Shown piece after piece: positions 1 through 11,772 of a DNA stretch of 11,772 nucleotides (its first letter is position 1; every line of letters begins with the position of its first letter). A model generated the notes under the pieces. The model did no database searches. It was not told the DNA's origin and was given only the letters and a program-made list of their open reading frames with translations. The DNA is from a virus. Lineage: Duplodnaviria; Heunggongvirae; Uroviricota; Caudoviricetes. The position numbers were made by a program, and so were the translations under genes. The stretch spans positions 1-11,772 of the IMG/VR virus record IMGVR_UViG_2671180637_000006. The stretch is one strand, 5' to 3'.

Positions 1-67
1 CACCGCCGTCGAACTGCCCGACGTTCAGACCGCGCCCGTGGCTGAAACTGTCAATCTGTGGGAGTAA
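1..67 (+). CDS. X: 3' end of tail protein X-like gene (partial, start outside window)
   Basis: Open frame from the window edge reads ...TAVELPDVQTAPVAETVNLWE, stop TAA at 65-67, immediately upstream of the holin gene as in P2 (X-Y order). Identification is from synteny and memory of the P2 gpX C-terminus. Confidence 0.55.
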   Translation, partial: TAVELPDVQTAPVAETVNLWE

Positions 68-70
68 CGC

Positions 71-352
71 ATGACAGCAGAAGAAAAAAGCGTCCTGTCG
101 CTTTTCATGATTGGGGTGCTGATTGTTGTCGGCAAGGTGCTTGCCGGTGGTGAACCCATCACCCCGCGTCTGTTTATCGGGCGCATGTTGCTCGGTGGTT
201 TTGTCTCGATGGTTGCCGGTGTTGTTCTGGTGCAGTTTCCTGACCTGTCACTGCCTGCGGTGTGCGGCATCGGCTCCATGCTGGGTATCGCCGGTTATCA
301 GGTGATTGAGATTGCCATTCAGCGCCGCTTTAAGGGCAGGGGGAAACCGTAA
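71..352 (+). CDS. Y: Phage holin (P2 gpY-like), 93 aa
   Basis: ATG at 71 with GGAG at 61-64. Small protein with hydrophobic helices (LSLFMIGVLIVVGKVLAG, LGGFVSMVAGVVLVQF) and a charged C-terminus. Sits directly upstream of the endolysin; its stop overlaps the K start (TAATG at 350-354). Confidence 0.85.
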   Translation: MTAEEKSVLSLFMIGVLIVVGKVLAGGEPITPRLFIGRMLLGGFVSMVAGVVLVQFPDLSLPAVCGIGSMLGIAGYQVIEIAIQRRFKGRGKP

Positions 353-849
353 TGCCGGTAATTAACACGCATCAGAATATCGCCGCCTTTCTCGACATGC
401 TGGCCGTGTCCGAAGGGACGGCGAATCATCCGCTGACGAAAAACCGGGGCTATGACGTGATAGTCACCGGACTGGACGGGAAGCCGGAAATTTTCACCGA
501 CTACAGTGACCACCCGTTCGCACATGGCCGACCGGCGAAGGTGTTTAACCGTCGCGGTGAAAAATCCACGGCCTCCGGTCGCTATCAGCAGCTTTACCTG
601 TTCTGGCCGCACTACCGCAAACAGCTTGCCCTGCCGGATTTCAGTCCGTTGTCACAGGACAGACTTGCCATTCAGTTGATCCGTGAACGCAGTGCACTGG
701 ATGACATCCGGGCGGGACGCATTGAGCGCGCCATTTCACGCTGTCGCAATATCTGGGCGTCCCTGCCGGGAGCCGGTTACGGTCAGCGTGAGCATTCACT
801 GGAAAAACTGGTCACCGTCTGGCGTACCGCTGGCGGCGTACCGGCTTAA
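352..849 (+). CDS. K: Endolysin / phage lysozyme (P2 gpK-like), 165 aa
   Basis: ATG at 352 with RBS AGGGGGAAA at 336-346. Sequence MPVINTHQNIAAFLDMLAVSEGT... matches what I recall of P2 K lysozyme; position after the holin. Confidence 0.9.
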   Translation: MPVINTHQNIAAFLDMLAVSEGTANHPLTKNRGYDVIVTGLDGKPEIFTDYSDHPFAHGRPAKVFNRRGEKSTASGRYQQLYLFWPHYRKQLALPDFSPLSQDRLAIQLIRERSALDDIRAGRIERAISRCRNIWASLPGAGYGQREHSLEKLVTVWRTAGGVPA

Positions 850-863
850 ACGGAGTAAACACC

Positions 864-1289
864 ATGAAGAAATTATCCCTTTCACTGATGCTGAACGTGT
901 CGCTGGCGCTGATGCTGGCACTGTCCCTGATTTACCCGCAGAGCGTGGCCGTCAGTTTTGTCGCCACCTGGGCGATTCTGGCGACGGTTATCTGTGTGGT
1001 TGCCGGTGGTGTCGGTGTGTATGCCACTGAGTATGTACTGGAACGCTACGAACGGGAGCTGCCGCCGGAATCGCTGGCCGTGAAGATTGTCACGTCGCTG
1101 TTTTTGCAGCCGGTGCCGTGGCGCAGACGGGCAGTAGCTCTGGTGGTGATGGTGGCGACATTTATCTCGCTGGTCGCTGCCGGGTGGATTTTTACCGCGC
1201 TGATTTATCTCGTGGCATCGGTGTTCTTCTGGCTGATACGTACGGCCTGCCGTCAGCGTTTTGAGGGGCGGGAACCATGTCAAGGCTGA
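864..1289 (+). CDS. lysA: LysA-like lysis-timing membrane protein, 141 aa
   Basis: ATG at 864 with GGAG at 852-855. Multi-pass hydrophobic protein. Same size and position as P2 lysA between K and lysB. Confidence 0.8.
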   Translation: MKKLSLSLMLNVSLALMLALSLIYPQSVAVSFVATWAILATVICVVAGGVGVYATEYVLERYERELPPESLAVKIVTSLFLQPVPWRRRAVALVVMVATFISLVAAGWIFTALIYLVASVFFWLIRTACRQRFEGREPCQG

Positions 1290-1702
1290 TGATTGTGCTG
1301 GTCGTGTTGTTATCGCTGGCGGTGGCGGGTCTGTTTCTGGCGAAGCATAAAAACGCCAGCCTGCGCACCTCACTGGACAGGGCAAACAACGTAGCCAGCG
1401 AGCAGCAGGCGACCATCACCATGCTGAAAAATCAGCTTCATGTTGCGCTCACCAGGGCAGACAAAAACGAGCTGGCGCAGGTGGCACTGCGTCAGGAGCT
1501 GGAGAACGCCGCGAAGCGTGAAGCACAGCGCGAGAAAACCATCACGAGGTTACTCAATGAAAACGAAGATTTCCGCCGCTGGTACGGTGCTGACCTGCCT
1601 GATGCTGTGCGCCGGTTGCACCAGCGCCCGGCCTGCGCAGACGCCAGTGATTGTCCACAACGCCTGCCCGAAAGTGAGTCTTTGCCCGATGCCGGGCAGT
1701 GA
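1277..1702 (+). CDS. lysB: LysB, Rz-like inner-membrane spanin, 141 aa
   Basis: ATG at 1277 with RBS GAGGGGCGGGAA, overlapping the lysA 3' end by 13 nt. N-terminal TM helix (MIVLVVLLSLAVAGLFLA) followed by a charged coiled-coil-like region. Same size as P2 LysB. Confidence 0.8.
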   Translation: MSRLMIVLVVLLSLAVAGLFLAKHKNASLRTSLDRANNVASEQQATITMLKNQLHVALTRADKNELAQVALRQELENAAKREAQREKTITRLLNENEDFRRWYGADLPDAVRRLHQRPACADASDCPQRLPESESLPDAGQ

Positions 1703-1847
1703 CCCGGAGACGAACGGCGATTTAAGTGCCGATATCCGGCAGCTTGAGAACGCGCTGGCACGCTGTGCCAGCCAGGTAAAAATGATTAAACACTGTCAGG
1801 ACGAAAACGATGCTCAAACCCGACAGCCTGCGCAGGGCGCTGACTGA
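1557..1847 (+). CDS. lysC: LysC, Rz1-like outer-membrane lipoprotein spanin, 96 aa, nested in the +1 frame of lysB
   Basis: Internal ATG at 1557 with GAGG at 1546-1549. Signal peptide plus Cys-containing lipobox-like segment (MKTKISAAGTVLTCLMLCAGCTS) and a Pro/Cys-rich mature part. Starts inside lysB and extends past its stop. The track ORF 1440-1847 is the unrestricted upstream extension of this frame. Confidence 0.7.
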   Translation: MKTKISAAGTVLTCLMLCAGCTSARPAQTPVIVHNACPKVSLCPMPGSDPETNGDLSADIRQLENALARCASQVKMIKHCQDENDAQTRQPAQGAD

Positions 1848-2277
1848 TGCCGTCACGGTGCTGAAAACCAGTCCCGAGATGCTGCGGATATTCGTGGATA
1901 GCGGGAGTATTGCCTCCACGCTGGCGACGTCGCTGTCATTCGAAAAGCGTTACACGCTCAATGTGATTGTGACCGACTTTACCGGTGATTTTGACCTGCT
2001 CATCGTGCCGGTGCTGGCGTGGCTGCGGGAAAATCAGCCCGACATCATGACCACCGACGCAGGCCAGAAAAAGGGCTTCACGTTTTATGCAGACATCAAC
2101 AATGACAGCAGCTTTGATATCAGTATCAGCCTGATGCTGACCGAGCGCACGCTGGTCAGTGAGGTTGACGGTGCGCTGCATGTGAAGAATATCCCGGAAC
2201 CCCCGCCGCCGGAGCCGGTCACCCGCCCGATGGAGCTTTATATCAATGGCGAACTGGTGAGCAAGTGGGATGAATGA
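1810..2277 (+). CDS. R: Tail completion protein R (P2 gpR-like), 155 aa
   Basis: ATG at 1810. Sequence MLKPDSLRRALTDAVTVLKTSPEML... and synteny after the lysis cassette. Confidence 0.85.
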   Translation: MLKPDSLRRALTDAVTVLKTSPEMLRIFVDSGSIASTLATSLSFEKRYTLNVIVTDFTGDFDLLIVPVLAWLRENQPDIMTTDAGQKKGFTFYADINNDSSFDISISLMLTERTLVSEVDGALHVKNIPEPPPPEPVTRPMELYINGELVSKWDE

Positions 2278-2722
2278 GTTTAAGCGTTTTGAAGACCGAC
2301 TGGCCGGACTGACTGAATCGCTGTCACCGTCAGGGCGTCGGCGACTGAGTGCCGAACTGGCGAAACGTCTGCGGCAGAGTCAGCAGCGCCGGGTGATGGC
2401 TCAGAAAGCCCCGGACGGCACACCCTACGCGCCACGTCAGCAGCAGAGCGCCAGAAAAAAGACCGGTCGCGTTAAGCGAAAAATGTTTGCGAAACTTATC
2501 ACCAGTCGTTTTTTGCATATCCGCGCCAGCCCTGAACAGGCATCAATGGAATTTTACGGCGGGAAGTCACCGAAAATCGCCAGCGTGCATCAGTTCGGTC
2601 TGTCGGAAGAAACCCGGAAAGACGGTAAGAAAATTGATTATCCGGCGCGTCCTCTGCTCGGCTTTACCGGTGAGGATGTGCAGATGATTGAAGAGATTAT
2701 CCTGGCTCACCTGAATCGTTAG
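2270..2722 (+). CDS. S: Tail completion / virion morphogenesis protein S (P2 gpS-like), 150 aa
   Basis: ATG at 2270 overlapping the R stop (2275-2277). Sequence MNEFKRFEDRLAGLTESLSPSGRRRLSAELAKRLRQ... Same size as P2 gpS. Confidence 0.85.
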   Translation: MNEFKRFEDRLAGLTESLSPSGRRRLSAELAKRLRQSQQRRVMAQKAPDGTPYAPRQQQSARKKTGRVKRKMFAKLITSRFLHIRASPEQASMEFYGGKSPKIASVHQFGLSEETRKDGKKIDYPARPLLGFTGEDVQMIEEIILAHLNR

Positions 2723-2797
2723 CTTTAATCATCTGAGAATATAAGATAGAAATCAATTGATTAGCATAATTCATTTTGAATTTTCATGTTAATAAAT

Positions 2798-2820
2798 AAA
2801 AGGCCAGTTATTGGCCTTTT
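2798..2820. terminator. Bidirectional rho-independent terminator at the convergent S / cargo-gene junction
   Basis: Perfect 9-bp stem AAAAGGCCA (2798-2806) / TGGCCTTTT (2812-2820) with loop GTTAT. The A-run on one side and T-run on the other give a U-tract on either strand. Confidence 0.6.
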
Positions 2821-2824
2821 ATCA

Positions 2825-3898
2825 TTACTTGCCATTTTTTAATGAATTGATTAACGATGCTATTTGCTCTATGCCATCAAATGTAGATGGTATCTTATCA
2901 TCGGATAGCATGATGTTCGAAAATACGACATCTTCAAATTTTGAAAGCGCTTCCGGATTGTTTTTCCTTATCTCTGAGGAATAGTCGCTATAACTCTGAA
3001 TAAACTGACAAAGGCTCTTTCTGAGTTCTATTTGCATAATCTGAGTTCGTAACGATATGTGATTTATCAGTACAACTCTAAAGTAATAAATGAAAATCAA
3101 TGTGACTGATGCAAAAGGTAGTGCTGACATGAAATATGTGGCAGCATTTGTCGTTTCGAGAGTTGGTAATTTATGCACTCCATAGTATATCAGCGGGGAT
3201 GGGATGATTATAGCTAAGATGACAAGGATTATTCTTGATAGTAAAATTTCACGATCTTTCTTTTTGCCAAGTGAATTAAAGCCTTCAAACAATCCAACAA
3301 AATTAAATGCGACCTCATACCCTTTCAATGATTCTTTAATTGACTCTATTTTGGTATGTTGTTCTTTTAAAAAGGACTCGCATTTTTCGAAAAATTGACG
3401 ACCTTCGCTTAAACTATCAATATATTTTTTATATGTGTCCACATTGCCTGAGCTTAAAACTTCTTTAACCATTGCTAATGGTAGTTCTCTAAGAGAAAAG
3501 TCTATCTGTGCTCTGCTTTGTTCATCGAATTCATTATAGTTATACAGCGCGAAATCCTTGATGGTTTTTAGTGGTGAAAAGAAAGTATCTGTCTCAGGAG
3601 AGAGAATACTTGGCTCAATAATAAATCTAAAAAAACAAGTGAATATAAAATTGATGCTGTTGTTATCCTCTCCCTTTTCTTTTAATAAGCTTGTAAAGGT
3701 ATTACCAATCCTGACAATGTTGTACTGGGATTTTTTGTCCCAATCTTCTGGGTTTTCAGAAATGAAGTCTATTGCTTGAGCAATTATTTTGTTTCTGTTT
3801 GATTCAAAGGTTGTGCTGGGTGTCAGCGTGTTCAAAAAGACCAGATAATCTTTGAACAATTCTTTCATTGTTTTTGATGAGAAAAAGTAAGTGTTCAT
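2825..3898 (-). CDS. Hypothetical membrane protein, no recognised domain (about 357 aa from ATG at 3898; 389 aa if started at the GTG at 3994); candidate anti-phage / abortive-infection effector
   Basis: Long minus-strand ORF filling the AT-rich island; stop TAA at 2825-2827. Two adjacent hydrophobic helices near the C-terminus (ILLSRIILVILAIIIPSPLIYYGV and ATYFMSALPFASVTLIFIYYFRVVLI) followed by a roughly 75 aa tail. Start is uncertain: the track start at 3994 is a GTG that overlaps the V start codon, and the in-frame ATGs at 3898 and 3868 both lack a good SD. Confidence 0.6.
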   Translation of the reverse strand: MNTYFFSSKTMKELFKDYLVFLNTLTPSTTFESNRNKIIAQAIDFISENPEDWDKKSQYNIVRIGNTFTSLLKEKGEDNNSINFIFTCFFRFIIEPSILSPETDTFFSPLKTIKDFALYNYNEFDEQSRAQIDFSLRELPLAMVKEVLSSGNVDTYKKYIDSLSEGRQFFEKCESFLKEQHTKIESIKESLKGYEVAFNFVGLFEGFNSLGKKKDREILLSRIILVILAIIIPSPLIYYGVHKLPTLETTNAATYFMSALPFASVTLIFIYYFRVVLINHISLRTQIMQIELRKSLCQFIQSYSDYSSEIRKNNPEALSKFEDVVFSNIMLSDDKIPSTFDGIEQIASLINSLKNGK

Positions 3899-3984
3899 TA
3901 TGGATTTTGTTGTCCCTTGTTGTTCTGTGCACCAGAAATCGTTGCGTGATTTACTTTGGGATTGTACAGAATCATTATTCTCGA
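3899..3984. promoter_or_regulatory. Divergent intergenic region expected to contain the late promoter for the V operon (P2 P_V equivalent)
   Basis: By synteny, P2 has a late promoter upstream of V. The region contains TGTTGTT at 3918-3924 followed by ACCAG, a motif also present upstream of FI. I could not find an exact TGT-N12-ACA dyad. Confidence 0.3.
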
Positions 3985-4614
3985 ATGAATACACAATACA
4001 ATGAAATACTTCGCTTTATACGCAATATGATTCGCACCGGCATTATCGTCGAAACCGACCTTAACGCCGGTCGCTGCCGTGTGCAGACCGGCGGCATGTG
4101 TACCGACTGGCTTCAGTGGCTGACCCATCGCGCCGGACGTTCGCGCACGTGGTGGGCACCTTCCGTGGGGGAACAGGTGCTGATTCTGGCCGTGGGCGGT
4201 GAACTCGACACGGCGTTCGTTCTGCCGGGGATTTATTCCGGCGATAACCCCGCGCCGTCTGCGTCGGCGGATGCCCTGCATATCCGTTTCCCTGACGGGG
4301 CGGTGATTGAGTATGAACCTGAAACCAGTGCACTCACGGTAAGCGGAATTAAAACGGCCAGCGTGACGGCTTCTGATTCTGTTACTGCCACGGTGCCCGT
4401 GGTCACGGTGAAAGCATCAACCCGTGTCACTCTGGACACGCCGGAGGTGGTCTGCACAAACAGGCTGATTACCGGCACGCTGGAAGTGCAGAAGGGCGGG
4501 ACGATGCGCGGCAACATTGAACACACCGGCGGTGAACTCTCATCAAACGGTAAGGTACTGCATACCCATAAACACCCCGGCGACAGCGGCGGCACAACCG
4601 GGAGTCCTCTATGA
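3985..4614 (+). CDS. V: Baseplate spike protein V (P2 gpV-like), 209 aa
   Basis: ATG at 3985 (MNTQYNEILRFIRNMIRTGIIVETDLNAGRCRVQTGG...). C-terminus ...HTHKHPGDSGGTTGSPL is typical of the gpV spike. The track ORF starting at 3868 is an upstream extension. Confidence 0.9.
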   Translation: MNTQYNEILRFIRNMIRTGIIVETDLNAGRCRVQTGGMCTDWLQWLTHRAGRSRTWWAPSVGEQVLILAVGGELDTAFVLPGIYSGDNPAPSASADALHIRFPDGAVIEYEPETSALTVSGIKTASVTASDSVTATVPVVTVKASTRVTLDTPEVVCTNRLITGTLEVQKGGTMRGNIEHTGGELSSNGKVLHTHKHPGDSGGTTGSPL

Positions 4615-4958
4615 CAGCGCGTTATCTCGGAATGAATCGCAGTGATGGCCTGACTGTCACTGACCTTGAGCATATCAGCCAGAGTATCGGCGATATCCTG
4701 CGCACACCGGTCGGCTCACGGGTGATGCGTCGTGATTACGGCTCGTTGCTGGCGTCAATGATTGACCAGCCGCAGACTCCGGCGCTTGAGTTGCAGATTA
4801 AGGTCGCCTGTTACATGGCTGTGCTGAAATGGGAACCCCGCGTCACCCTGTCATCTGTCACCACGGCGCGCAGCTTTGACGGGCGAATGACAGTTACGTT
4901 AACCGGCCAGCACAACGACACCGGCCAGCCACTTTCGTTAACCATCCCTGTGAGTTGA
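4611..4958 (+). CDS. W: Baseplate assembly protein W (P2 gpW-like, gp25-type), 115 aa
   Basis: ATG at 4611 overlapping the V stop (ATGA), GGAG at 4601-4604. Sequence and size match P2 gpW. Confidence 0.9.
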   Translation: MTARYLGMNRSDGLTVTDLEHISQSIGDILRTPVGSRVMRRDYGSLLASMIDQPQTPALELQIKVACYMAVLKWEPRVTLSSVTTARSFDGRMTVTLTGQHNDTGQPLSLTIPVS

Positions 4959-4962
4959 AACC

Positions 4963-5871
4963 ATGCCGATTATCGACCTGAACCAGCTACCCGCACCGGA
5001 TGTGGTCGAGGAGCTGGATTTTGAAACCATTCTTGCTGAACGCAAGGCGACACTGATTTCCCTTTACCCGGAAGACCAGCAGGAGGCGGTCGCCCGTACC
5101 CTGACGCTGGAATCTGAGCCTCTCGTCAAACTGCTGGAGGAAAATGCTTATCGTGAGCTTATCTGGCGTCAGCGTGTGAATGAGGCCGCACGGGCGGTGA
5201 TGCTGGCCTGTGCCGCCGGTAATGACCTTGATGTGATTGGTGCCAATTACAACACCACGCGCCTGATTATCACTCCGGCAGATGATTCGACCCTCCCGCC
5301 GACACCGGCCGTGATGGAATCTGACACCGATTATCGTCTGCGTATTCAGCAGGCCTTTGAAGGTTTAAGCGTCGCCGGGTCGGTGGGTGCCTATCAGTAT
5401 CATGGTCGCAGTGCTGACGGGCGTGTCGCGGATATCTCTGTCACCAGTCCGTCTCCGGCCTGCGTCACCATCTCCGTGCTGTCACGTGAAAATAACGGTG
5501 TCGCATCCGAAGACCTGCTGGCCGTGGTGCGTAACGCCCTTAATGGTGAGGACGTCAGGCCGGTGGCCGACCGCGTGACCGTGCAGTCTGCCGCCATTGT
5601 TGAATATCAGATAAACGCCACGCTTTACCTTTACCCAGGCCCCGAAAGCGAACCCATCCGCGCTGCCGCCGTGAAAAAACTGGAAGCGTATATCACAGCA
5701 CAGCACCGGCTGGGGCGTGACATCCGTCTGTCTGCCATTTATGCCGCTTTGCATGTGGAAGGTGTGCAGCGTGTCGAACTGGCTGCACCACTGGCCGACA
5801 TCGTGCTCAACAGTACGCAGGCGTCTTTCTGTACCGAATACCGCGTCGTGACCGGAGGCTCGGATGAGTGA
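4963..5871 (+). CDS. J: Baseplate protein J (P2 gpJ-like), 302 aa
   Basis: ATG at 4963, 4 nt after the W stop. Sequence MPIIDLNQLPAPDVVEELDFETILAERKA... Same size as P2 gpJ. Confidence 0.9.
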   Translation: MPIIDLNQLPAPDVVEELDFETILAERKATLISLYPEDQQEAVARTLTLESEPLVKLLEENAYRELIWRQRVNEAARAVMLACAAGNDLDVIGANYNTTRLIITPADDSTLPPTPAVMESDTDYRLRIQQAFEGLSVAGSVGAYQYHGRSADGRVADISVTSPSPACVTISVLSRENNGVASEDLLAVVRNALNGEDVRPVADRVTVQSAAIVEYQINATLYLYPGPESEPIRAAAVKKLEAYITAQHRLGRDIRLSAIYAALHVEGVQRVELAAPLADIVLNSTQASFCTEYRVVTGGSDE

Positions 5872-6394
5872 TTCGCGACTGCTGCCGACCGGCTCATCAC
5901 CGCTTGAAGTTGCCGCCGCAAAAGCCTGTGCGGAAATTGAAAAAACGCCGGTCAGGATTCGTGAGCTGTGGAACCCGGACACCTGCCCGGCAAATCTGCT
6001 GCCGTGGCTGGCGTGGGCGTTTTCGGTCGACAGATGGGATGAAAAGTGGCCGGAAGCGACAAAACGCGCCGTTATCCGCGATGCGTATTTCATCCACTGT
6101 CATAAAGGCACTATAGGTGCAATCCGGCGTGTGGTGGAGCCGCTCGGCTATCTCATCAACGTGACGGAGTGGTGGGAAAACAGTGACCCGCCCGGCACCT
6201 TCCGGCTTGATATTGGTGTACTGGAAAGTGGCATCACAGAGGCAATGTATCAGGAAATGGAACGGCTGATTGCTGATGCCAAACCTGCAAGCCGTCACCT
6301 TATTGGCCTGAACATTACCCGGGACATTCCCGGCTACCTGTTCGCCGGTGGTGTGGCTTACGACGGCGATGTAATTACGGTTTACCCCGGATAA
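5864..6394 (+). CDS. I: Baseplate / tail formation protein I (P2 gpI-like), 176 aa
   Basis: ATG at 5864 overlapping the J stop (5869-5871). Sequence MSDSRLLPTGSSPLEVAAAKACAEIEKTPVRIRELW... Same size as P2 gpI. Confidence 0.9.
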   Translation: MSDSRLLPTGSSPLEVAAAKACAEIEKTPVRIRELWNPDTCPANLLPWLAWAFSVDRWDEKWPEATKRAVIRDAYFIHCHKGTIGAIRRVVEPLGYLINVTEWWENSDPPGTFRLDIGVLESGITEAMYQEMERLIADAKPASRHLIGLNITRDIPGYLFAGGVAYDGDVITVYPG

Positions 6395-6404
6395 GTGAGG
6401 AATA

Positions 6405-8723
6405 ATGAGCACAAAATTCAAAACCGTTATCACCACTGCCGGTGCAGCAAAGCTGGCAGCGGCAACCGCACCGGGAGGGCGGAAGGTCAACATTACCACG
6501 ATGGCCGTCGGGGATGGCGGTGGTAAATTGCCTGTCCCGGATGCCGGACAGACCGGGCTTATCCACGAAGTCTGGCGACATGCGCTGAACAAAATCAGTC
6601 AGGACAAACGAAACAGTAATTATATTATCGCAGAGCTGGTTATTCCGCCGGAGGTGGGCGGTTTCTGGATGCGTGAGCTTGGCCTGTACGATGATGCGGG
6701 AACGCTAATTGCCGTGGCAAACATGGCCGAAAGTTATAAACCAGCTCTTGCCGAAGGCTCAGGGCGTTCGCAGACCTGCCGCATGGTCATCATCGTCAGC
6801 AGTGTGGCCTCAGTGGAGCTGACCATTGACACCACAACGGTGATGGCGACGCAGGATTACGTTGATGACAAAATTGCAGAGCACGAACAGTCACGACGTC
6901 ACCCGGACGCTTCGCTGACCGCAAAAGGTTTTACTCAGTTAAGCAGTGCGACCAACAGCACGTCTGAAACACTGGCTGCAACGCCGAAAGCGGTAAAGGC
7001 CGCGTATGACCTTGCTAACGGGAAATATACCGCGCAGGATGCCACCACCGCGCGAAAAGGCCTTGTTCAGCTCAGTAGTGCGACTAACAGCACGTCTGAA
7101 ACGATCGCCGCAACGCCAAAGGCGGTTAAGACAGCGTATGACCTTGCTAACGGGAAATACACTGCACAGGACGCCACTACAGCGCGAAAAGGTCTTGTCC
7201 AGCTCAGTAGCGCCACCAACAGCGATTCTGAAACGCTTGCGGCAACACCAAAGGCGGTTAAGACAGCGTATGACCTTGCTAACGGGAAATACACTGCACA
7301 GGATGCCACCACGGCGCGAAAAGGGCTTGTCCAGCTCAGTAGCGCCACCAACAGTGATTCTGAAACCCTCGCGGCAACGCCAAAAGCAGTGAAGTCTGCC
7401 TATGACAATGCTGAAAAACGTCTTCAGAAAGATCAGAACGGTGCGGATATTCCGGGAAAGGATACCTTCACGAAAAATATCGGTGCCTGTCGTGCTTATA
7501 GCGGCGCTTTGAGCACTGAAGCCGGAAACTGGACAACCGCTCAGTTTATTGACTGGCTAGAGTCTCAGGGAGCCTTTAATCATCCCTACTGGATGTGCAA
7601 AGGCTCCTGGTCATATGCAAATAACAAAATCATTACGGATACCGGATGTGGTGATATCCACCTGGCTGGTTGTGTCGTCGAGGTCATGGGAACTAAATCT
7701 GCAATCACTATCCGAGTGACCACGCCGACAACATCAAGTGGTGGCGGTACAACCAGCGCGCAATTCACTTACATTAATCATGGGGACGGCTACTCCCCCG
7801 GCTGGCGTCGTGACTGGAATCGTCAGGGCGACGCAATGACCGGAACGATTAATCAGGACGGTGGAAGCCAGAATGCCTATATGTCTACGGCCTTATGTTC
7901 AGGCACCAGAGGCGGCAAAAAATATCTCAGAAAGTTTCGTGGTGGAGAAGGAGATACTATCTGGCATGAAACAGTACAGGGCGGGGTAATTCGCTGGGCG
8001 ACAGGAAACTATGACACTCAGGAAGAATTATCACTCAGCTCCGCTTATGGTCTCCGTTCAAGAGGTGAAATTACATCACTCAGTGCTAATGGTCTGCGCA
8101 TTGCTTATGGCAATTATGGATTCTTTATCAGGAATGATGGCGGCAGCACATATTTAATGCTGACGGCCTCTGGCGATAAATTTGGGACATGGAACGGTTT
8201 AAGACCGCTGACTATCAATAACGCTAATGGCGGAGTGTCAATGGGGCATGGCCTGAGTGTTACAGGTGATATTGTCTCAAGTACCAAAGTACGTGCCGGT
8301 AGCGGGAAAAAGTTCACGGTCAGCAGCAGCAATACATCCACGAAGGAAGCCGCATTCAATTTGTGGGGAAACTCAAGTCGTCCTGTGGTGGCTGAATTAG
8401 GTGATGATGCAGGCTGGCATTTTTACAGTCAGAGAAATACAGATAACAGCATCACTTTTGCTGTTAACGGGCAGGTATCACCATCTAACTATAGTAATTT
8501 TGATTCACGCTATGTCCGGGATATCCGGCTTGGTGGTGCTGCCACATACAAACCTGCGAACAATGGCATGACATGGACACATCAGGCACCGTCCGGGTGT
8601 GTATATTCCGGCATTATTGTTCAGGATACCGGCTCAAACTCTGCCGATAACATTGGTGGCATATATTACAGACCGGTGCAGAAATACATTAACGGGACAT
8701 GGTATAACGTAGCGCAGGTATAA
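6405..8723 (+). CDS. H: Tail fiber protein H (P2 gpH-like N-terminus, repeat-expanded shaft, divergent distal domain), 772 aa
   Basis: ATG at 6405 with GTGAGG at 6395-6400. N-terminal roughly 150 aa (MSTKFKTVITTAGAAKLAAATAPGG...) is P2 H-like. Then 44-aa phage-tail-fiber-type repeats, then a Gly/Ser/Thr/Asn-rich distal domain encoded by AT-richer DNA. Confidence 0.9.
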   Translation: MSTKFKTVITTAGAAKLAAATAPGGRKVNITTMAVGDGGGKLPVPDAGQTGLIHEVWRHALNKISQDKRNSNYIIAELVIPPEVGGFWMRELGLYDDAGTLIAVANMAESYKPALAEGSGRSQTCRMVIIVSSVASVELTIDTTTVMATQDYVDDKIAEHEQSRRHPDASLTAKGFTQLSSATNSTSETLAATPKAVKAAYDLANGKYTAQDATTARKGLVQLSSATNSTSETIAATPKAVKTAYDLANGKYTAQDATTARKGLVQLSSATNSDSETLAATPKAVKTAYDLANGKYTAQDATTARKGLVQLSSATNSDSETLAATPKAVKSAYDNAEKRLQKDQNGADIPGKDTFTKNIGACRAYSGALSTEAGNWTTAQFIDWLESQGAFNHPYWMCKGSWSYANNKIITDTGCGDIHLAGCVVEVMGTKSAITIRVTTPTTSSGGGTTSAQFTYINHGDGYSPGWRRDWNRQGDAMTGTINQDGGSQNAYMSTALCSGTRGGKKYLRKFRGGEGDTIWHETVQGGVIRWATGNYDTQEELSLSSAYGLRSRGEITSLSANGLRIAYGNYGFFIRNDGGSTYLMLTASGDKFGTWNGLRPLTINNANGGVSMGHGLSVTGDIVSSTKVRAGSGKKFTVSSSNTSTKEAAFNLWGNSSRPVVAELGDDAGWHFYSQRNTDNSITFAVNGQVSPSNYSNFDSRYVRDIRLGGAATYKPANNGMTWTHQAPSGCVYSGIIVQDTGSNSADNIGGIYYRPVQKYINGTWYNVAQV
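6924..7406 (+). repeat. In-frame tandem repeat array, about 3.7 copies of a 132-bp (44-codon) unit, inside H
   Basis: Unit K-G-[FL]-[TV]-QLSSATNS[TD]SET[LI]AATPKAVK[AT]AYDLANGKYTAQDATTAR starts at 6924, 7056, 7188 and 7320 (partial). Copies differ at a minority of nucleotides, so they are diverged, not identical. Confidence 0.85.
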
Positions 8724-8726
8724 TTT

Positions 8727-9254
8727 ATGCAGCATTTGATAAATATAACGGCGGGTAATCCAAAAACAGTTGAACAATATCAATTGACAAAGGACTTTGA
8801 TGTTGTCTGGTTTTTTACAGAAGATGGTAAGAACTGGTACGAAGAACAAAAGTATTTTGCTGATGACACGATAAAAATAGCGTACGACAAAGATAATATC
8901 ATCCGCTATGTGGAAAAGGATGTGACAGCTATCAGACCGGATGGATTAAGTGTTGTTGAAGTGCCGGATATTACTGCTAACCGACGGGCGGACATTTCAG
9001 GGAACTGGATGTTTAAGGACGGTACAGTGATTAAACGAATTTATACGGCAGAGGAATTGCAGCAGCAGGCAGAAAATCGGAAAGCCAGACTTCTTGCAGA
9101 TGCTGAATCCGTGATTTTGCCGCTGGAGCGCGCTGTCAGGCTGAATATGGCAACAGATGAGGAGCGCAGTCGACTGGAGGCATGGGAACGCTACAGTGTT
9201 CTGGTCAGTCGTGTGGATCCTGCAAATCCTGAATGGCCGGAAATGCCGCAATAA
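8727..9254 (+). CDS. G: Tail fiber assembly chaperone G (Tfa family), 175 aa
   Basis: ATG at 8727, 3 nt after the H stop. AT-rich N-terminal two-thirds and a GC-richer conserved C-terminus (...[29 protein letters not shown]), as expected for a chaperone co-varying with the fiber tip. Confidence 0.85.
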
Positions 9255-9289
9255 GTTGTATGAGCTCTGGTGTGAGCTTACATATCTAT

Positions 9290-9339
9290 GGCACAGAGTA
9301 AAGCCTAATCTGAGAGTCCGCTCTGTGCCAGGAGCGGAC
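9290..9339 (+). other. Two overlapping, mutually exclusive hairpins just downstream of G
   Basis: GGCACAGAG (9290-9298) pairs with CTCTGTGCC (9321-9329); GTCCGCTC (9316-9323) pairs with GAGCGGAC (9332-9339). The stems share nt 9321-9323. No clean U-tract follows. Confidence 0.3.
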
Positions 9340-9467
9340 GTTCGTATGCTTGGCAACTTTGGTTTTCCTGAGTTCAACTTAACCACCTATGTATCATCGT
9401 AGCCTCTATAGAATAATCATTTTAAAACCTTTTAATATTTGGTAATATGTATTCTATAGTGATCATT

Positions 9468-9510
9468 ATTTCCTATCTCCACGACAGTTATGAGATAGGA
9501 AATTTAATAT
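9468..9510 (+). promoter_or_regulatory. Perfect 12-bp inverted repeat (candidate operator) overlapping a possible sigma70 promoter for the TIR-like gene
   Basis: ATTTCCTATCTC (9468-9479), 12-nt spacer, GAGATAGGAAAT (9492-9503). A -10-like TAATAT at 9505-9510 and a weak -35-like ACGACA at 9481-9486 lie about 40 nt upstream of the ATG at 9547. Confidence 0.35.
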
Positions 9511-9546
9511 AGATGTCGTAATGATGACGATAAAAGTTGAGATGTC

Positions 9547-10512
9547 ATGACCAGTATATTTATATCCTATGCCAGAGAAGACTTTTTAATTGCAAAAAAA
9601 CTAACCGAAGAACTAAATCGACATGAGTACAAGGTATTTTTGGATCAACAATCGATTCAGCTTGGGGCTCATTGGCAAGAAGATATACTGAAGCATTTAA
9701 AAAATGCGGATGTATTTATCGCACTTGTTACTGAACATAGCGATAAGTCTTATTATTTTAATGCAGAGGTTACTGGCGCTATATCCTATGTAGCTCATAG
9801 CAATCGGGATAAACTTATTTTGCCAGTGGTGCTGGATAAAGAAGTGCTTAATGATAGCGATCTTGGGGCCTTCCAAGCATTATTCGCACGCTCTGATGAT
9901 ATGACATACCTCGTACATGAAATTGTGAATGCTATCAGCCGCTTCGAAGGTGCCCGACTAGCTCAGGAAGAGATAAAAGAAATTCGAGCACAAGTTCTTA
10001 AAGATGAATCAGCCGATTACATAAGCGAAACAATTGAGGATCTTAAGGCGCGCGAAAAAGCTGGTCGCCAATTATCGTCAAGATGGCATTTTGCTGGATA
10101 TGCGGCATTAATACTTTCTGTCATTTTCGTATTTATTCTTTGGTATTTGGCTGAGCGTTCATTTGTACAATCACCTCTTGATACCACTAGACTGGTTTTC
10201 GATGCCATTAAGGGCGTAACGGTTGTTGCGTTACTTTTGGGCTTGGCAAGATATTCATTTTTAATGGCGAAAACTCATCAATTAGAAGCTTTGAAGAACG
10301 CCGATCGTCTGCACGCCATTTCTTTTGGGAAATTTTATATGCGCGTTTTCTCTACGCAAATATCTCAATCTGAATTAAAAGAAGTATTTCAACATTGGAA
10401 TACTTCAGGGGCGTCAGATTTGTCGCATCTTGATGTAGATAAAATTGACTCGCGATTTATTGAACTCTTTGGGAAAATCGCATCAAGATTTGATGGCAAA
10501 AATAAATCTTAA
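9547..10512 (+). CDS. TIR-like domain protein fused to a C-terminal two-helix membrane hairpin, 321 aa; candidate anti-phage effector
   Basis: ATG at 9547. N-terminus fits the TIR pattern: IFISYAREDF (betaA), KVFLD (betaB), ADVFIALVTEHSDKSYYFNAEV (betaC/alphaC with Glu74 at the position of the conserved TIR glutamate). Residues about 130-180 are charged and helical. Hydrophobic helices FAGYAALILSVIFVFILWYLA and GVTVVALLLGLARYSFLMA, then an 80-aa tail. Confidence 0.6.
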   Translation: MTSIFISYAREDFLIAKKLTEELNRHEYKVFLDQQSIQLGAHWQEDILKHLKNADVFIALVTEHSDKSYYFNAEVTGAISYVAHSNRDKLILPVVLDKEVLNDSDLGAFQALFARSDDMTYLVHEIVNAISRFEGARLAQEEIKEIRAQVLKDESADYISETIEDLKAREKAGRQLSSRWHFAGYAALILSVIFVFILWYLAERSFVQSPLDTTRLVFDAIKGVTVVALLLGLARYSFLMAKTHQLEALKNADRLHAISFGKFYMRVFSTQISQSELKEVFQHWNTSGASDLSHLDVDKIDSRFIELFGKIASRFDGKNKS

Positions 10513-10642
10513 CTAAGGATTCTTCTTGTCAGGGCTGGCAATCAATTTAAGCCCGCTATTCGCTCAAAGCAGACTATCAGATTTGATAGCGTTTGGGCTA
10601 TGTAAATTGTCAGTCGGAAAATGAGCGTGTACAAATCATGAC

Positions 10643-10670
10643 AGGCGGGCTGATTGCCCGCCTTTTCTTT
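10643..10670 (+). terminator. Rho-independent terminator downstream of the TIR-like gene
   Basis: GC stem AGGCGGGC (10643-10650), loop TGATT, GCCCGCC (10656-10662), then TTTTCTTT (10663-10670). Confidence 0.7.
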
Positions 10671-10765
10671 ATCTGTTGTTTCATCCACTGACCAGCCAGG
10701 TCAAATAGCATCTCATGCTCTGCACAACAGAAAATAGTTGCACCCATTAACCACGGAGTTAAACG
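10671..10765 (+). promoter_or_regulatory. Region expected to contain the late promoter for the FI operon (P2 P_F equivalent)
   Basis: By synteny, P2 has a late promoter upstream of FI. Contains TGTTGTT at 10674-10680 followed by ACCAG at 10691-10695, and the inverted pair TCTGTTGT (10672-10679) / ACAACAGA (10724-10731). GGAG at 10755-10758 is the RBS for FI. Confidence 0.3.
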
Positions 10766-11772
10766 GATGAGTGACTATCATCACGGCGTGCAGGTGCTGG
10801 AGATTAACGACGGCACCCGCGTCATTTCCACCGTATCCACTGCCATTGTCGGCATGGTCTGTACGGCCAGCGATGCGGATGCGGAATCCTTCCCCCTCAA
10901 TAAACCGGTGCTGATTACCAATGTGCAGAGTGCAATTGCAAAGGCCGGTAAAAAAGGCACGCTGGCGGCATCGTTGCAGGCCATCGCCGACCAGTCAAAA
11001 CCGGTCACCGTTGTTGTGCGCGTGGAGGACGGCACCGGCGACGACGAAGAAACGAAACTTGCGCAGACCGTTTCCAATATCATCGGCACCACCGACGAAA
11101 ACGGTCAGTACACCGGACTGAAAGCCCTGCTGGCGGCAGAGTCGGTAACCGGTGTTAAACCGCGCATTCTCGGTGTGCCGGGACTGGACACCAAAGAGGT
11201 GGCTGTTGCACTGGCATCCGTCTGTCAGAAGCTGCGCGCTTTCGGATATATCAGCGCATGGGGCTGTAAGACCATTTCCGAGGTGAAAGCCTACCGCCAG
11301 AATTTCAGCCAGCGTGAGCTGATGGTCATCTGGCCGGATTTCCTCGCATGGGATACGGTCACCAGTACCACCGCCACCGCGTATGCCACCGCCCGTGCGC
11401 TGGGGCTGCGCGCTAAAATCGACCAGGAGCAGGGCTGGCATAAAACGCTGTCCAACGTCGGGGTAAACGGTGTTACCGGCATCAGCGCATCTGTATTCTG
11501 GGATTTGCAGGAGTCCGGCACCGATGCTGACCTGCTTAACGAGTCAGGCGTCACTACGCTGATTCGCCGCGACGGTTTCCGATTCTGGGGTAACCGTACC
11601 TGCTCTGATGACCCGCTGTTCCTCTTTGAAAACTACACCCGCACCGCGCAGGTGATGGCCGACACGATGGCTGAGGCGCACATGTGGGCGGTGGACAAGC
11701 CCATCACCGCAACGCTGATTCGCGACATCGTTGACGGCATCAATGCCAAATTCCGTGAGCTGAAAACAAACG
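10766..11772 (+). CDS. FI: Tail sheath protein FI (P2 gpFI-like), 5' partial (runs off the window end)
   Basis: ATG at 10766 with GGAG at 10755-10758. Open frame to the window end reads MSDYHHGVQVLEINDGTRVISTVSTAIVGMVCTASDADAESFPLNKPVLITN..., which I recognise as the P2 tail sheath N-terminus. Confidence 0.9.

Follow-up and report, generated by a model that had tools for sequence, protein, structure and literature searches.

We conclude with high confidence that nucleotides ~7389 to 9254 of the window, i.e., the whole stretch of 11,772 nucleotides analysed here, form the host-range region of the tail fibre of a P2-like (Peduovirus) prophage, and that this region is a mosaic of at least three modules shuffled genus-wide, not one newly gained cassette. 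Base composition, breakpoints, co-variation and sharing across lineages were each observed directly. The region consists of a chain of variable modules, A (7389–7862, Mu-S'/P7-Sv type), B (7863–8495, a Mu-S/gp34 shaft) and C (8535–9110, tip plus Tfa N-domain), which are separated by short conserved linkers: by the fibre repeats with their ‘QNGADIP’ motif, by NFDSRYVRDIRLG, by an island at the end of H and the start of G, and by the Tfa C-domain. Judging from the breakpoint positions, homologous recombination at these linkers would reshuffle the modules among P2-like phages, and rarer module exchange may occur with Mu-like, P1-like and other myoviruses. Such a mosaic organisation of fibre and chaperone is already known; the P2-like fibre host-range region as a patchwork of shuffled modules has been textbook biology since 1992.

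Genes H and G and their domains

The tail fibre gene H (6405–8723, 772 aa; like all features described here on the + strand) was identified by its open reading frame, its Pfam domains and a V-W-J-I-H-G synteny as in P2. Within this operon, it lies after the baseplate genes and before FI, and P2, fiAA91-ss, P37 and Wphi all align colinearly to the window with 94–96% nucleotide identity. The collar or baseplate-attachment domain (6405–6857, aa 1–151; Pfam Phage_tail_fib, PF12571, E 1.4e-58) has a backbone-type composition and occurs in two allele classes among peduoviruses, with 97–100% amino acid identity to P2 (97%), fiAA91-ss, YpM115, 12474II, Wphi and pro147, and 84–85% to P37, P22H1, YpM22 and 569R9. 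Further downstream lies a tandem array of 132-nt (44-aa) fibre repeats (6951–7406; 3.5 copies according to TRF), in which four Phage_fiber_2 repeats were recognised from aa 170 onward (PF03406, four stretches, E 1.7e-77). Copy number varies among aligned relatives with the same repeat unit: P2, P37 and fiAA91-ss have one unit fewer than H here. Collar, Phage_fiber_2 repeats and operon position all match gpH of Peduovirus. By homology, collar and 44-aa repeats would anchor and lengthen the fibre, and distal H would recognise the receptor; in P2, it is the C-terminal region of gpH that binds the receptor, the LPS core.

The left junction falls on a linker, AYDNAEKRLQKDQNGADIPGKDTF (7389–7460, aa 329–352), where G+C changes and Mu Sv'-type homology sets in; in P22H1, whose H departs from the repeat array after the first unit, this linker comes straight after that first repeat. 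Homology to P2 stops at ~7394. Nucleotide homology to P2 is then missing from ~7400 until ~8280, and over module B, P2 matches at 72–79% only from ~8330 onward. Homology to Mu Sv' begins at H aa 329 (tblastn), 5 nt from the annotated boundary of the Mu G segment, nucleotide homology to phage vB_YpM_44 begins at 7425, ~25 nt past the gix-like site of that phage, and phrog_21834 covers H aa 329–460 end to end. A junction near 7400, as put forward in the original prediction, is thus borne out by the changepoint (7382), by the end of P2 homology and by the start of homology to Mu Sv' and vB_YpM_44 (7389–7425). The coincidence with a crossover site holds only for Mu and vB_YpM_44; equating the junction with the cix site of P7 was rejected, as the match to P7 Sv starts 646 nt inside that gene.

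Module A (7389–7862, aa 329–486) makes up the proximal portion of the distal fibre and is of Mu S'/P7 Sv type, as seen from structure, amino acid and nucleotide matches. It matches residues 179–332 of PDB 8JU3 (Mu S/S'; E of the stretch 3e-70) and is 69% identical to Mu Sv' and 74% identical to P7 Sv on the amino acid level. Module B, the distal shaft (7863–8495, aa 487–697), includes a Gp34_trimer-like/Mu Sv-like segment, matching Mu S (5YVQ_A, residues 227–343) and T4 gp34 structures, with the Gp34_trimer-like Pfam domain at aa 541–604. Next come the conserved linker NFDSRYVRDIRLG (8496–8534, aa 698–710), whose columns are invariant in a five-way alignment and whose motif recurs in Mu S, and the variable fibre tip (8535–8669, aa 711–755). 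The tip exists in two allele classes, tip alleles being distinguished as ‘GSNSADNIGG’ and ‘IVGEVDGDD’, and has 97–99% amino acid identity to fiAA91-ss and P22H1, and 44–45% to P2 and P37. Assigned by position, without alignment to P88 H, the tip probably corresponds to HR2, the host-range-determining region of phage P88; swapping HR2 in P88 alters the host range of this P2-like phage (PMC5285337).

An island with 78–98% nucleotide identity in all peduoviruses checked (8670–8760) spans the H end, RPVQKYINGTWYNVAQV with the stop, and the G start, MQHLxNIxxGNPKT. Gene G (8727–9254) lies immediately downstream of the fibre gene, the H stop ending at 8723, and encodes a tail-fibre assembly protein (Tfa) of 175 aa (Pfam Caudo_TAP, PF02413, E 1.2e-34; phrog_136). 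G matches Mu Tfa gpU over its full length (PDB 5YVQ_B, residues 1–175, E 1e-83) and has the two-domain build of Tfa/Caudo_TAP, a variable N-domain and a conserved C-domain; phrog_24494 covers aa 1–92 and phrog_3792 aa 101–175. The variable part (8761–9110, aa ~12–128), comprising the fibre-binding N-domain and the start of the C-domain, has 95–96% amino acid identity to fiAA91-ss, P22H1 and P22H4, and 65–70% to other alleles. The C-terminal (trimerisation) domain (9111–9254) has 80–100% identity to all peduoviruses, and the C-terminal 47 aa of G are 89–100% identical among them (94% to G of P2, likewise of 175 aa), in agreement with the conserved Tfa C-terminus anticipated from the sequence alone.

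Tfa proteins have a conserved C-domain and attach to the fibre through their N-domain (PMC9608196). Citing North 2019, the same source describes the N-domain of Mu Tfa as binding the fibre tip. By homology, the variable N-domain of G would dock on the fibre tip, and the conserved C-domain would trimerise. P2-P1(S') chimeras were functional with the cognate chaperone co-supplied, the need for the chaperone being an expectation of the authors, who did not try its omission (PMC9942202). Downstream of G, alignment to relatives revealed conserved P2-type sequence (9255–9342). Colinearity stops at 9342, the start of the variable Z/fun-slot cargo; the order after G is a TIR-domain ORF, then FI. The GTDB species representatives do not contain an exact 36-mer of the TIR ORF. 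The whole window gave zero Rfam matches for structured RNAs at gathering thresholds.

Base composition of the fibre region

The backbone has a G+C of 0.573 (1–2600), 0.571 (4050–7399) and 0.578 (10750–11772), and its 200-nt windows average 0.573 (sd 0.024, minimum 0.505). In contrast, G+C from 7400 to 9150 is 0.466 (mean over its 200-nt windows 0.464). Maximum-likelihood binary segmentation over 4050–9342 placed a changepoint at 7382, where G+C falls from 0.572 to 0.471 (2LLR 50.1, compared with a shuffle 99th percentile of 15.0); when the segmentation was refined, a further candidate changepoint in the area of the G N-domain stayed below the conservative threshold of 15. Hence, the composition drop claimed originally is real, and so is its detail of 32% G+C on the 60-nt line at 8761–8820 (measured 0.317). 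The lowest values of the region, 0.32–0.33, lie in the first third of G. Two further statements stood in part. The composition was said to stay low, which does not strictly hold, as nt 7740–7919 climb to 0.56–0.575. Likewise, a return to backbone-like values at the G end is seen in total G+C (0.55–0.62 over the final ~130 nt and 0.54–0.62 over 9111–9254; 0.617 at 9121–9180 and 0.550 at 9181–9240), but is due to codon positions 1+2 (0.583), with GC3 still at 0.444.

GC3 is 0.59–0.73 in backbone genes, but amounts to 0.43–0.49 for the H codons past the repeat array and to 0.40 for codons 1–100 of G, where total G+C is likewise 0.40. Since GC3 falls too, the drop is not solely an amino acid effect. 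However, G+C at codon positions 1+2 also decreases: starting from 0.54, it drops to 0.47–0.51 in H, and the G N-domain has only 0.40; amino acid composition therefore contributes, and composition by itself is no proof of foreign origin. One could even explain the drop without any horizontal transfer, by fast vertical divergence of fibre tips and chaperones that are constrained on the protein or expression level, for instance by translation kinetics or by beta structures rich in Asn, Lys, Ile and Tyr. This explanation is favoured by the decrease at positions 1+2 and predicts an identical pattern in all carriers, which was indeed found. Nevertheless, we consider it very unlikely, as the drop in GC3 equals that of positions 1+2 and as the breakpoints described below do not conform to it.

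The identical G+C staircase was present in 7/7 peduoviruses checked, P2 included, whatever distal allele they carry (J 0.58–0.59; H start 0.54–0.56; last 1300 nt of H 0.47–0.49; G nt 1–300 0.38–0.40; G end 0.53–0.56). Mu has a similar series (baseplate 0.54; Sv 0.45; U nt 1–300 0.38; U end 0.55), and so has vB_YpM_44 next to J/I-like baseplate genes of only 0.38 (Sv' 0.44; U' nt 1–300 0.41; U' end 0.56). The shared pool of S/U-type fibre modules has low G+C as a signature of its own, intrinsic to the modules. Since every carrier shows this signature regardless of backbone composition, it points to ancient and ongoing horizontal flux genus-wide, not to a recent acquisition by this prophage. The right edge of the exchanged unit, originally set at ~9150, did not hold either: homology with foreign lineages reaches the G stop at 9254, and the high-G+C end is intrinsic to the Tfa C-domain, being found in Mu U and vB_YpM_44 U' as well (0.55–0.56).

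Breakpoints and module combinations among P2-like phages

The closest relatives of the window change along the region. Over module A, the Yersinia phages P37 and vB_YpM_115 (YpM115) have 97–100% nucleotide identity; fiAA91-ss and 12474II reach 97–100% as well, but only to ~7600, continue at 70–78% and lose the match at 7815; further breaks thus lie near 7600 and at 7815–7862. Over module B, P37 remains at 97–100% and YpM115 mostly at 86–100%, dipping to 67% and 85% in two patches at 8161–8280; fiAA91-ss and P22H1 have zero nucleotide homology there. At the linker NFDSRYVRDIRLG, the breakpoint between shaft and tip alleles, the situation reverses: within 8481–8511, P37 and YpM115 fall from 100% to 40–60%, where they stay over 8511–8670, and fiAA91-ss and P22H1 rise from 15–50% to 98–100%. 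Since the nearest relatives switch from 100% to 40–60% inside 30 nt, this is recombination, not rate variation, which speaks against vertical divergence. Thus, P37 and vB_YpM_115 share modules A and B with the window but differ in the tip region, and fiAA91-ss and P22H1 share the tip and the G N-domain at 95–100% but are without module B. P2 has the V-W-J-I-H-G order, the collar, the fibre repeats and the G+C staircase in common with the window, but amino acid identity to P2 is only 28% in the distal shaft, 45% in the tip and 68% in the N-domain of G.

Co-variation of these parts was assessed in 13 peduoviruses, which are non-independent and, in essence, represent two or three alleles of the tip. 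The 73 C-terminal residues of H and G aa 1–128 vary together (rho 0.79, Mantel p 0.0004), which lends indirect support to the predicted chaperone activity of G and its binding to the tip. The shaft is uncoupled both from the tip (rho 0.06) and from the G N-domain (rho 0.12). Further, 4/4 combinations of collar type and tip type, and also 4/4 of shaft type and tip type, occur among the 13 phages, again at odds with vertical divergence. Of the modules, only C, i.e., the ~73 C-terminal residues of H and G aa 1–128, behaves as a co-inherited pair, for which plain physical linkage could be sufficient without functional coupling. The distal part of H and the N-terminal part of G had been proposed to be swapped as a unit; the internal breakpoint at 8481–8511 and a shaft uncoupled from tip and G contradict this.

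Every segment has its best matches in Peduovirus (92–100% nucleotide identity), and other lineages reach only 67–82%. Best matches in P2-like phages, which the original prediction had itself named as a refuting outcome, were thus obtained for every part of 7400–9150. None of the phage records in the compared panel contains the whole H-G combination. It is present in E. coli prophages, e.g., in strain 730V1 at 98%, and at least 80% of H-G was found in 143 complete E. coli genomes (best match 98%, 6405–9340). One E. coli prophage, L008, is colinear with positions 1–9342 of the window at 98% and gap-free which, together with the staircase in 7/7 peduoviruses, contradicts an acquisition by this particular prophage. 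A single cassette at 7400–9150, recently gained from an unrelated lineage through junctions at ~7400 and ~100 nt before the G end, would agree with the changepoint at 7382, the missing P2 nucleotide homology from ~7400 to ~8280 and the related segments in Mu, P7 and vB_YpM_44. However, we regard it as extremely unlikely in view of the breakpoints at 8481–8511, near 7600 and at 7815–7862, the uncoupled shaft, the Peduovirus matches of every segment, the staircase in all peduoviruses checked and the same H-G in a 98% colinear relative, and also because module A and the chaperone resemble different Mu types, as set out below. A mosaic shuffled within the genus remains our preferred reading.

Relation to Mu-type invertible fibres

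That fibre and chaperone modules are common to unrelated phages, as had been assumed, is illustrated best by vB_YpM_44, an unclassified Yersinia phage of 49 kb with a phase-variable, Hin-type invertible fibre. Its backbone is unrelated, its J and I being only 29–31% identical to those of the window on the amino acid level, whereas a silent Sv'-like ORF is 82% identical to H aa 329–623 and U' is 72% identical to G. Vertical divergence does not explain such fibre similarity between phages with so different baseplate proteins. P7, P1, D108, SfMu and D6 also match the H-G region.

In Mu, Sv' is matched by H aa 329–486 from the G-segment boundary onward, Mu S by H aa 519–630 and the tip motifs, and U by full-length G, with 73% amino acid identity compared with 56% to U'. 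Module A is therefore of Mu Sv' (G-) type, whereas the chaperone and, more weakly, the tip are of Sv-U (G+) type, which are alternative phases in Mu. In contrast to Mu, the window has neither an invertase, nor gix sites, nor an inverted second gene set. A search with the Mu gix 26-mer gave no match in the window, whether 3 or as many as 6 mismatches were allowed, the gix core palindrome occurs at chance level only, no long inverted repeats above chance were found in 6300–10800, and neither an invertase gene nor an inverted second Sv'/U' fibre set was found beside G. A phase-variable segment of the Din-invertase kind (Mu G, P1/P7 C) was consequently rejected. P2 H retains a relic of a gix-like 26-mer (3 mismatches to Mu gix), which is absent from the window, as is the 32-aa gix-bearing segment that Mu S' has between two NGADIP motifs. 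Recombination between these two motifs would delete the crossover site, and the H allele might then be a ‘frozen’ hybrid of both phases of a Mu-type invertible fibre, with an Sv' (G-) module fused to the repeats and joined to a chaperone and, more weakly, a tip of Sv/U (G+) type. We consider such an origin unlikely. If it were true, the conserved linkers would be dedicated shuffling joints, and in case module A and the tip contact different surface structures, the specificity of the fibre would be dual or hybrid, beyond that of any Mu phase.

As a caution, low G+C in this region is of no use for dating or attributing an acquisition. The practical value of the module boundaries is modest; aa 329 (left junction), ~aa 486 (A/B), aa 698–710 (pre-tip linker) and G aa 128 (end of the variable part) could guide fibre engineering of P2/P4 delivery particles. 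For the biology of these phages, the classical picture is confirmed at this locus: P2-like phages change their host range by shuffling modules of fibre tip and chaperone, drawn from a pool common to Mu-, P1- and T-even-like phages.

A chain of modules within a P2-like late region

Its ORFs, and colinear nucleotide matches of 94-96% to P2, fiAA91-ss, P37, Wphi and many other peduoviruses, identify the window as late genes of a P2-like (Peduovirus) prophage. They run in the order Y, K (352-849), lysA, lysB/C, R, S (ending at 2722), V, W, J, I (5864-6394), the tail fibre gene H (6405-8723, 772 aa), the Tfa chaperone gene G (8727-9254, 175 aa) and FI, with an AT-rich insert after S in the orf30 slot and an AT-rich cargo after G in the Z/fun slot. 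Pfam recognized in H a tail-collar domain (aa 1-151), four Phage_fiber_2 repeats and a gp34-trimerisation-like segment (aa 541-604), and Caudo_TAP in G; the locus belongs to the Peduovirus gpH family and the Tfa family.

The orf30-slot insert between S and V (2723-3990, 30-37% G+C) carries a minus-strand ORF (2825-3994) for a 389-aa protein with two hydrophobic stretches close to its C-terminus. It had no Pfam or PADLOC match, its sole match being phrog_9373 (unknown function, E 3e-126), and it is 100% identical in the prophage of E. coli O19:H7 730V1. The Z/fun cargo between G and FI (9343-10552, 28-43% G+C) contains a plus-strand ORF (9547-10512) whose 321-aa product has an N-terminal TIR domain (Pfam TIR_2, E 6e-21; PADLOC PDC-S66/ThsB-like TIR) and, judged by eye, hydrophobic, transmembrane-like C-terminal stretches, making it a candidate single-gene anti-phage defence. 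A megablast search of 5,426 complete E. coli genomes gave no match to this cargo. Among species representatives, the nearest homologue, in Rheinheimera pacifica, is 74% identical at the aa level, and the remaining ones are 30-35% identical and scattered over phyla. A terminator-like hairpin lies at 10643-10663.

When nucleotide identity of the window to a phage panel was traced in 40-60-nt steps, the closest relatives switched several times along H-G. Up to about 7020, P2, fiAA91-ss, vB_YpM_115 and 12474II are 95-100% identical and P37 and P22H1 only 65-90%. P2 homology stops at about 7394, within a repeat array, and from 7381 to about 7600 P37, vB_YpM_115, fiAA91-ss and 12474II all reach 97-100%. 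Thereafter fiAA91-ss and 12474II fall to 70-78%, their homology being gone at 7815, and 7815-8480 matches only P37 (97-100%) and vB_YpM_115 (mostly 86-100%, with short lower patches). Within 8481-8511, P37 and vB_YpM_115 drop from 100% to 40-60%, and fiAA91-ss and P22H1 rise from 15-50% to 98-100%, which they keep as far as about 9110. Over the stretch from about 9111 up to 9342, every peduovirus in the panel converges to 80-100%. Protein alignment located the breakpoints in short conserved motifs, namely 'AYDNAEKRLQKDQNGADIPGKDTF' (H aa 329-352), NFDSRYVRDIRLG (H aa 698-710) and RPVQKYINGTWYNVAQV (H aa 756-772) together with the first G residues. The segment of approximately 45 aa enclosed by the second and third of these motifs (aa 711-755, nt 8535-8669) occurs in two allele classes and, by its position in H, is probably the counterpart of HR2, whose exchange altered the host range of the P2-like phage P88 (PMC5285337). 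The region therefore reads as a chain of modules, not as a single cassette.

The repeat array in H (6951-7406) comprises 3.5 tandem copies of a 132-nt (44-aa) unit with 87% identity. Aligned at the protein level, P2, P37 and fiAA91-ss have one unit fewer and P22H1 exits the array after the first; this differing unit number implies fibre-length variation through unequal crossing-over.

Base composition of the H-G region

The original prediction, that an AT-rich host-range cassette at 7400-9150 was acquired horizontally by this prophage with a junction near 7400, proved correct in its observation and was partly supported in its interpretation. G+C is 0.466 across 7400-9150, compared with 0.57-0.58 in the backbone (200-nt windows: mean 0.573, sd 0.024). 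Unbiased likelihood segmentation of 4050-9342 placed the strongest single changepoint at nt 7382 (2LLR 50.1; 99th percentile of shuffles 15.0), so composition is not uniform, and the 32% quoted for 8761-8820 was computed as 0.317. GC3, 0.59-0.73 in backbone genes, drops to 0.43-0.49 for distal H and to 0.40 for G codons 1-100; however, the stretch is not low throughout, as G+C climbs to 0.56-0.575 at 7740-7919. The noted return to backbone-like values at the end of G holds for total G+C (up to 0.617 and 0.550 in 9121-9240), but only because codon positions 1+2 are high (0.583), GC3 there being still 0.444. The conserved Tfa C-domain has this composition intrinsically.

Each of the seven peduoviruses that were checked, among them P2, whose distal allele is unrelated, shows the same staircase: 0.58-0.59 in J, 0.54-0.56 in the first 516 nt of H, 0.47-0.49 in its last 1300 nt, 0.38-0.40 in G nt 1-300 and 0.53-0.56 in the last 108 nt of G. 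It also recurs on unrelated backbones, in Mu (baseplate gene 0.54, Sv 0.45, U nt 1-300 0.38, U end 0.55) and in vB_YpM_44 (Sv' 0.44, U' nt 1-300 0.41, U' end 0.56). In the latter phage, the J/I-like baseplate genes have only 0.38 G+C, so that the fibre is richer in G+C than its neighbouring genes. This composition therefore belongs to the S/U-type module family as such, which takes it unchanged into backbones that differ in G+C. It is consistent with a horizontally circulating module pool, with which protein-level constraints probably combined in shaping it, and carries no information on a recent event in this prophage. Speaking against a recent acquisition by this prophage, the 730V1 prophage is colinear with window 1-9342 (98%, gapless, H-G included), the Z/fun cargo being the sole difference, and 143 complete E. 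coli genomes contain 80% or more of H-G.

Co-variation of fibre tip and chaperone

For 13 peduoviruses, H and G were divided into five parts, whose pairwise-identity matrices were compared. Variation in the last 73 aa of H (the tip) is strongly correlated with that in aa 1-128 of G (the N-domain; Spearman rho 0.79, Mantel p 0.0004), in a panel that is small, with non-independent members, and where plain physical linkage could add to the signal. Neither is coupled to the distal shaft (aa -440 to -75; rho 0.06 for the tip, 0.12 for the G N-domain), and the collar domain is uncoupled from all other parts. All four combinations of collar and tip types occur among the 13 phages, likewise of shaft and tip types, which requires recombination between those parts. 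Based on these correlations and allele combinations, we conclude that tip and matching chaperone part travel together, as predicted, but for about 8500-9110 only and not for the whole of 7400-9150.

G aa 1-92 and aa 101-175 match separate PHROG families, corresponding to two Tfa domains. In P7 (L015, 3424-3957) the corresponding functions are annotated as two genes, Ua and Ub, underlining a domain boundary near G aa 93-101.

Kinship with other lineages and proposed mode of exchange

G matches the solved Tfa of Mu (gpU, 5YVQ_B) over its full length (E 1e-83), with 73% identity to U versus 56% to U'. H aa 336-488 match residues 179-332 of the S/S' chain 8JU3, aa 519-630 and the tip motifs match S (5YVQ_A), and the gp34-like segment matches T4 gp34 structures. 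In tblastn against the Mu genome, H aa 329 (nt 7389) is where Sv' homology begins, and the annotated G-segment boundary lies 5 nt away. The phage vB_YpM_44 (49 kb, unclassified), whose J and I homologues are only 29-31% identical to those of the window, has a Hin-type invertase and a fibre segment bounded by 55-nt inverted repeats with gix-like sites. H aa 329-623 are nevertheless 82% identical to its silent Sv'-like ORF and G is 72% identical to its U', homology starting about 25 nt past the gix-like site. Sv of P7 is 74% identical to H aa 340-486, but this match sits 646 nt inside Sv. Tip and G region are 67-73% identical at the nucleotide level in Mu, D108, SfMu, P1, P7 and D6, and foreign homology extends to the G stop codon (9254). 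These matches demonstrate sharing of fibre/chaperone segments across lineages, although the best matches of every segment are peduoviruses (92-100%).

Mu S' is colinear with H from the last fibre repeat on, except for 32 residues, 'NKPLFIQNLGLQETVNQASGALQQNQNGADIP', which carry gix between two NGADIP motifs and are missing from H (window 7389-7460; Mu, L016, 2380-2470 and 5440-5526). The motifs are direct copies, and lack of the segment is consistent with recombination between them. A 26-nt relic of Mu gix with 3-4 mismatches, encoding '...YLGLQET...', persists in H of P2 (L002, 7712-7737), Wphi, pro147 and OU784549 (comparison records L009 and L010, 6338-6363; L012, 2636-2661) and is absent from H of the window, P37, fiAA91-ss, vB_YpM_115 and P22H1. 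An invertible-segment system was rejected for the window locus, since gix sites, an invertase and an inverted gene set were looked for there and none was found.

H-G mosaicism as such is already known, the same phenomenon having reportedly been described for P2 H/G by Haggard-Ljungquist et al. in 1992, and the window's allele is already in databases. The only mildly new points are the precise module map, the junction in this allele of an Sv'-type module with a chaperone and, more weakly, a tip of Sv/U type, and its lack of the gix relic kept by P2-type alleles.

From this anatomy and established knowledge we infer a mechanism in which the collar domain would be the attachment point of H trimers, the repeats and modules A (7389-7862) and B (7863-8495) would form the shaft, and the tip (aa 711-755 with flanks) would be the main specificity determinant. 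The G N-domain would dock on the tip and the conserved C-domain would trimerise, as stated for Tfa in a passage of PMC9608196 citing North et al. (2019). Engineered P2 fibres joined to P1 S' close to this position were functional; the cognate chaperone U' was co-supplied because the authors considered that folding might require it (PMC9942202). New specificities would arise when co-resident or co-infecting phages undergo homologous recombination at the conserved linkers.
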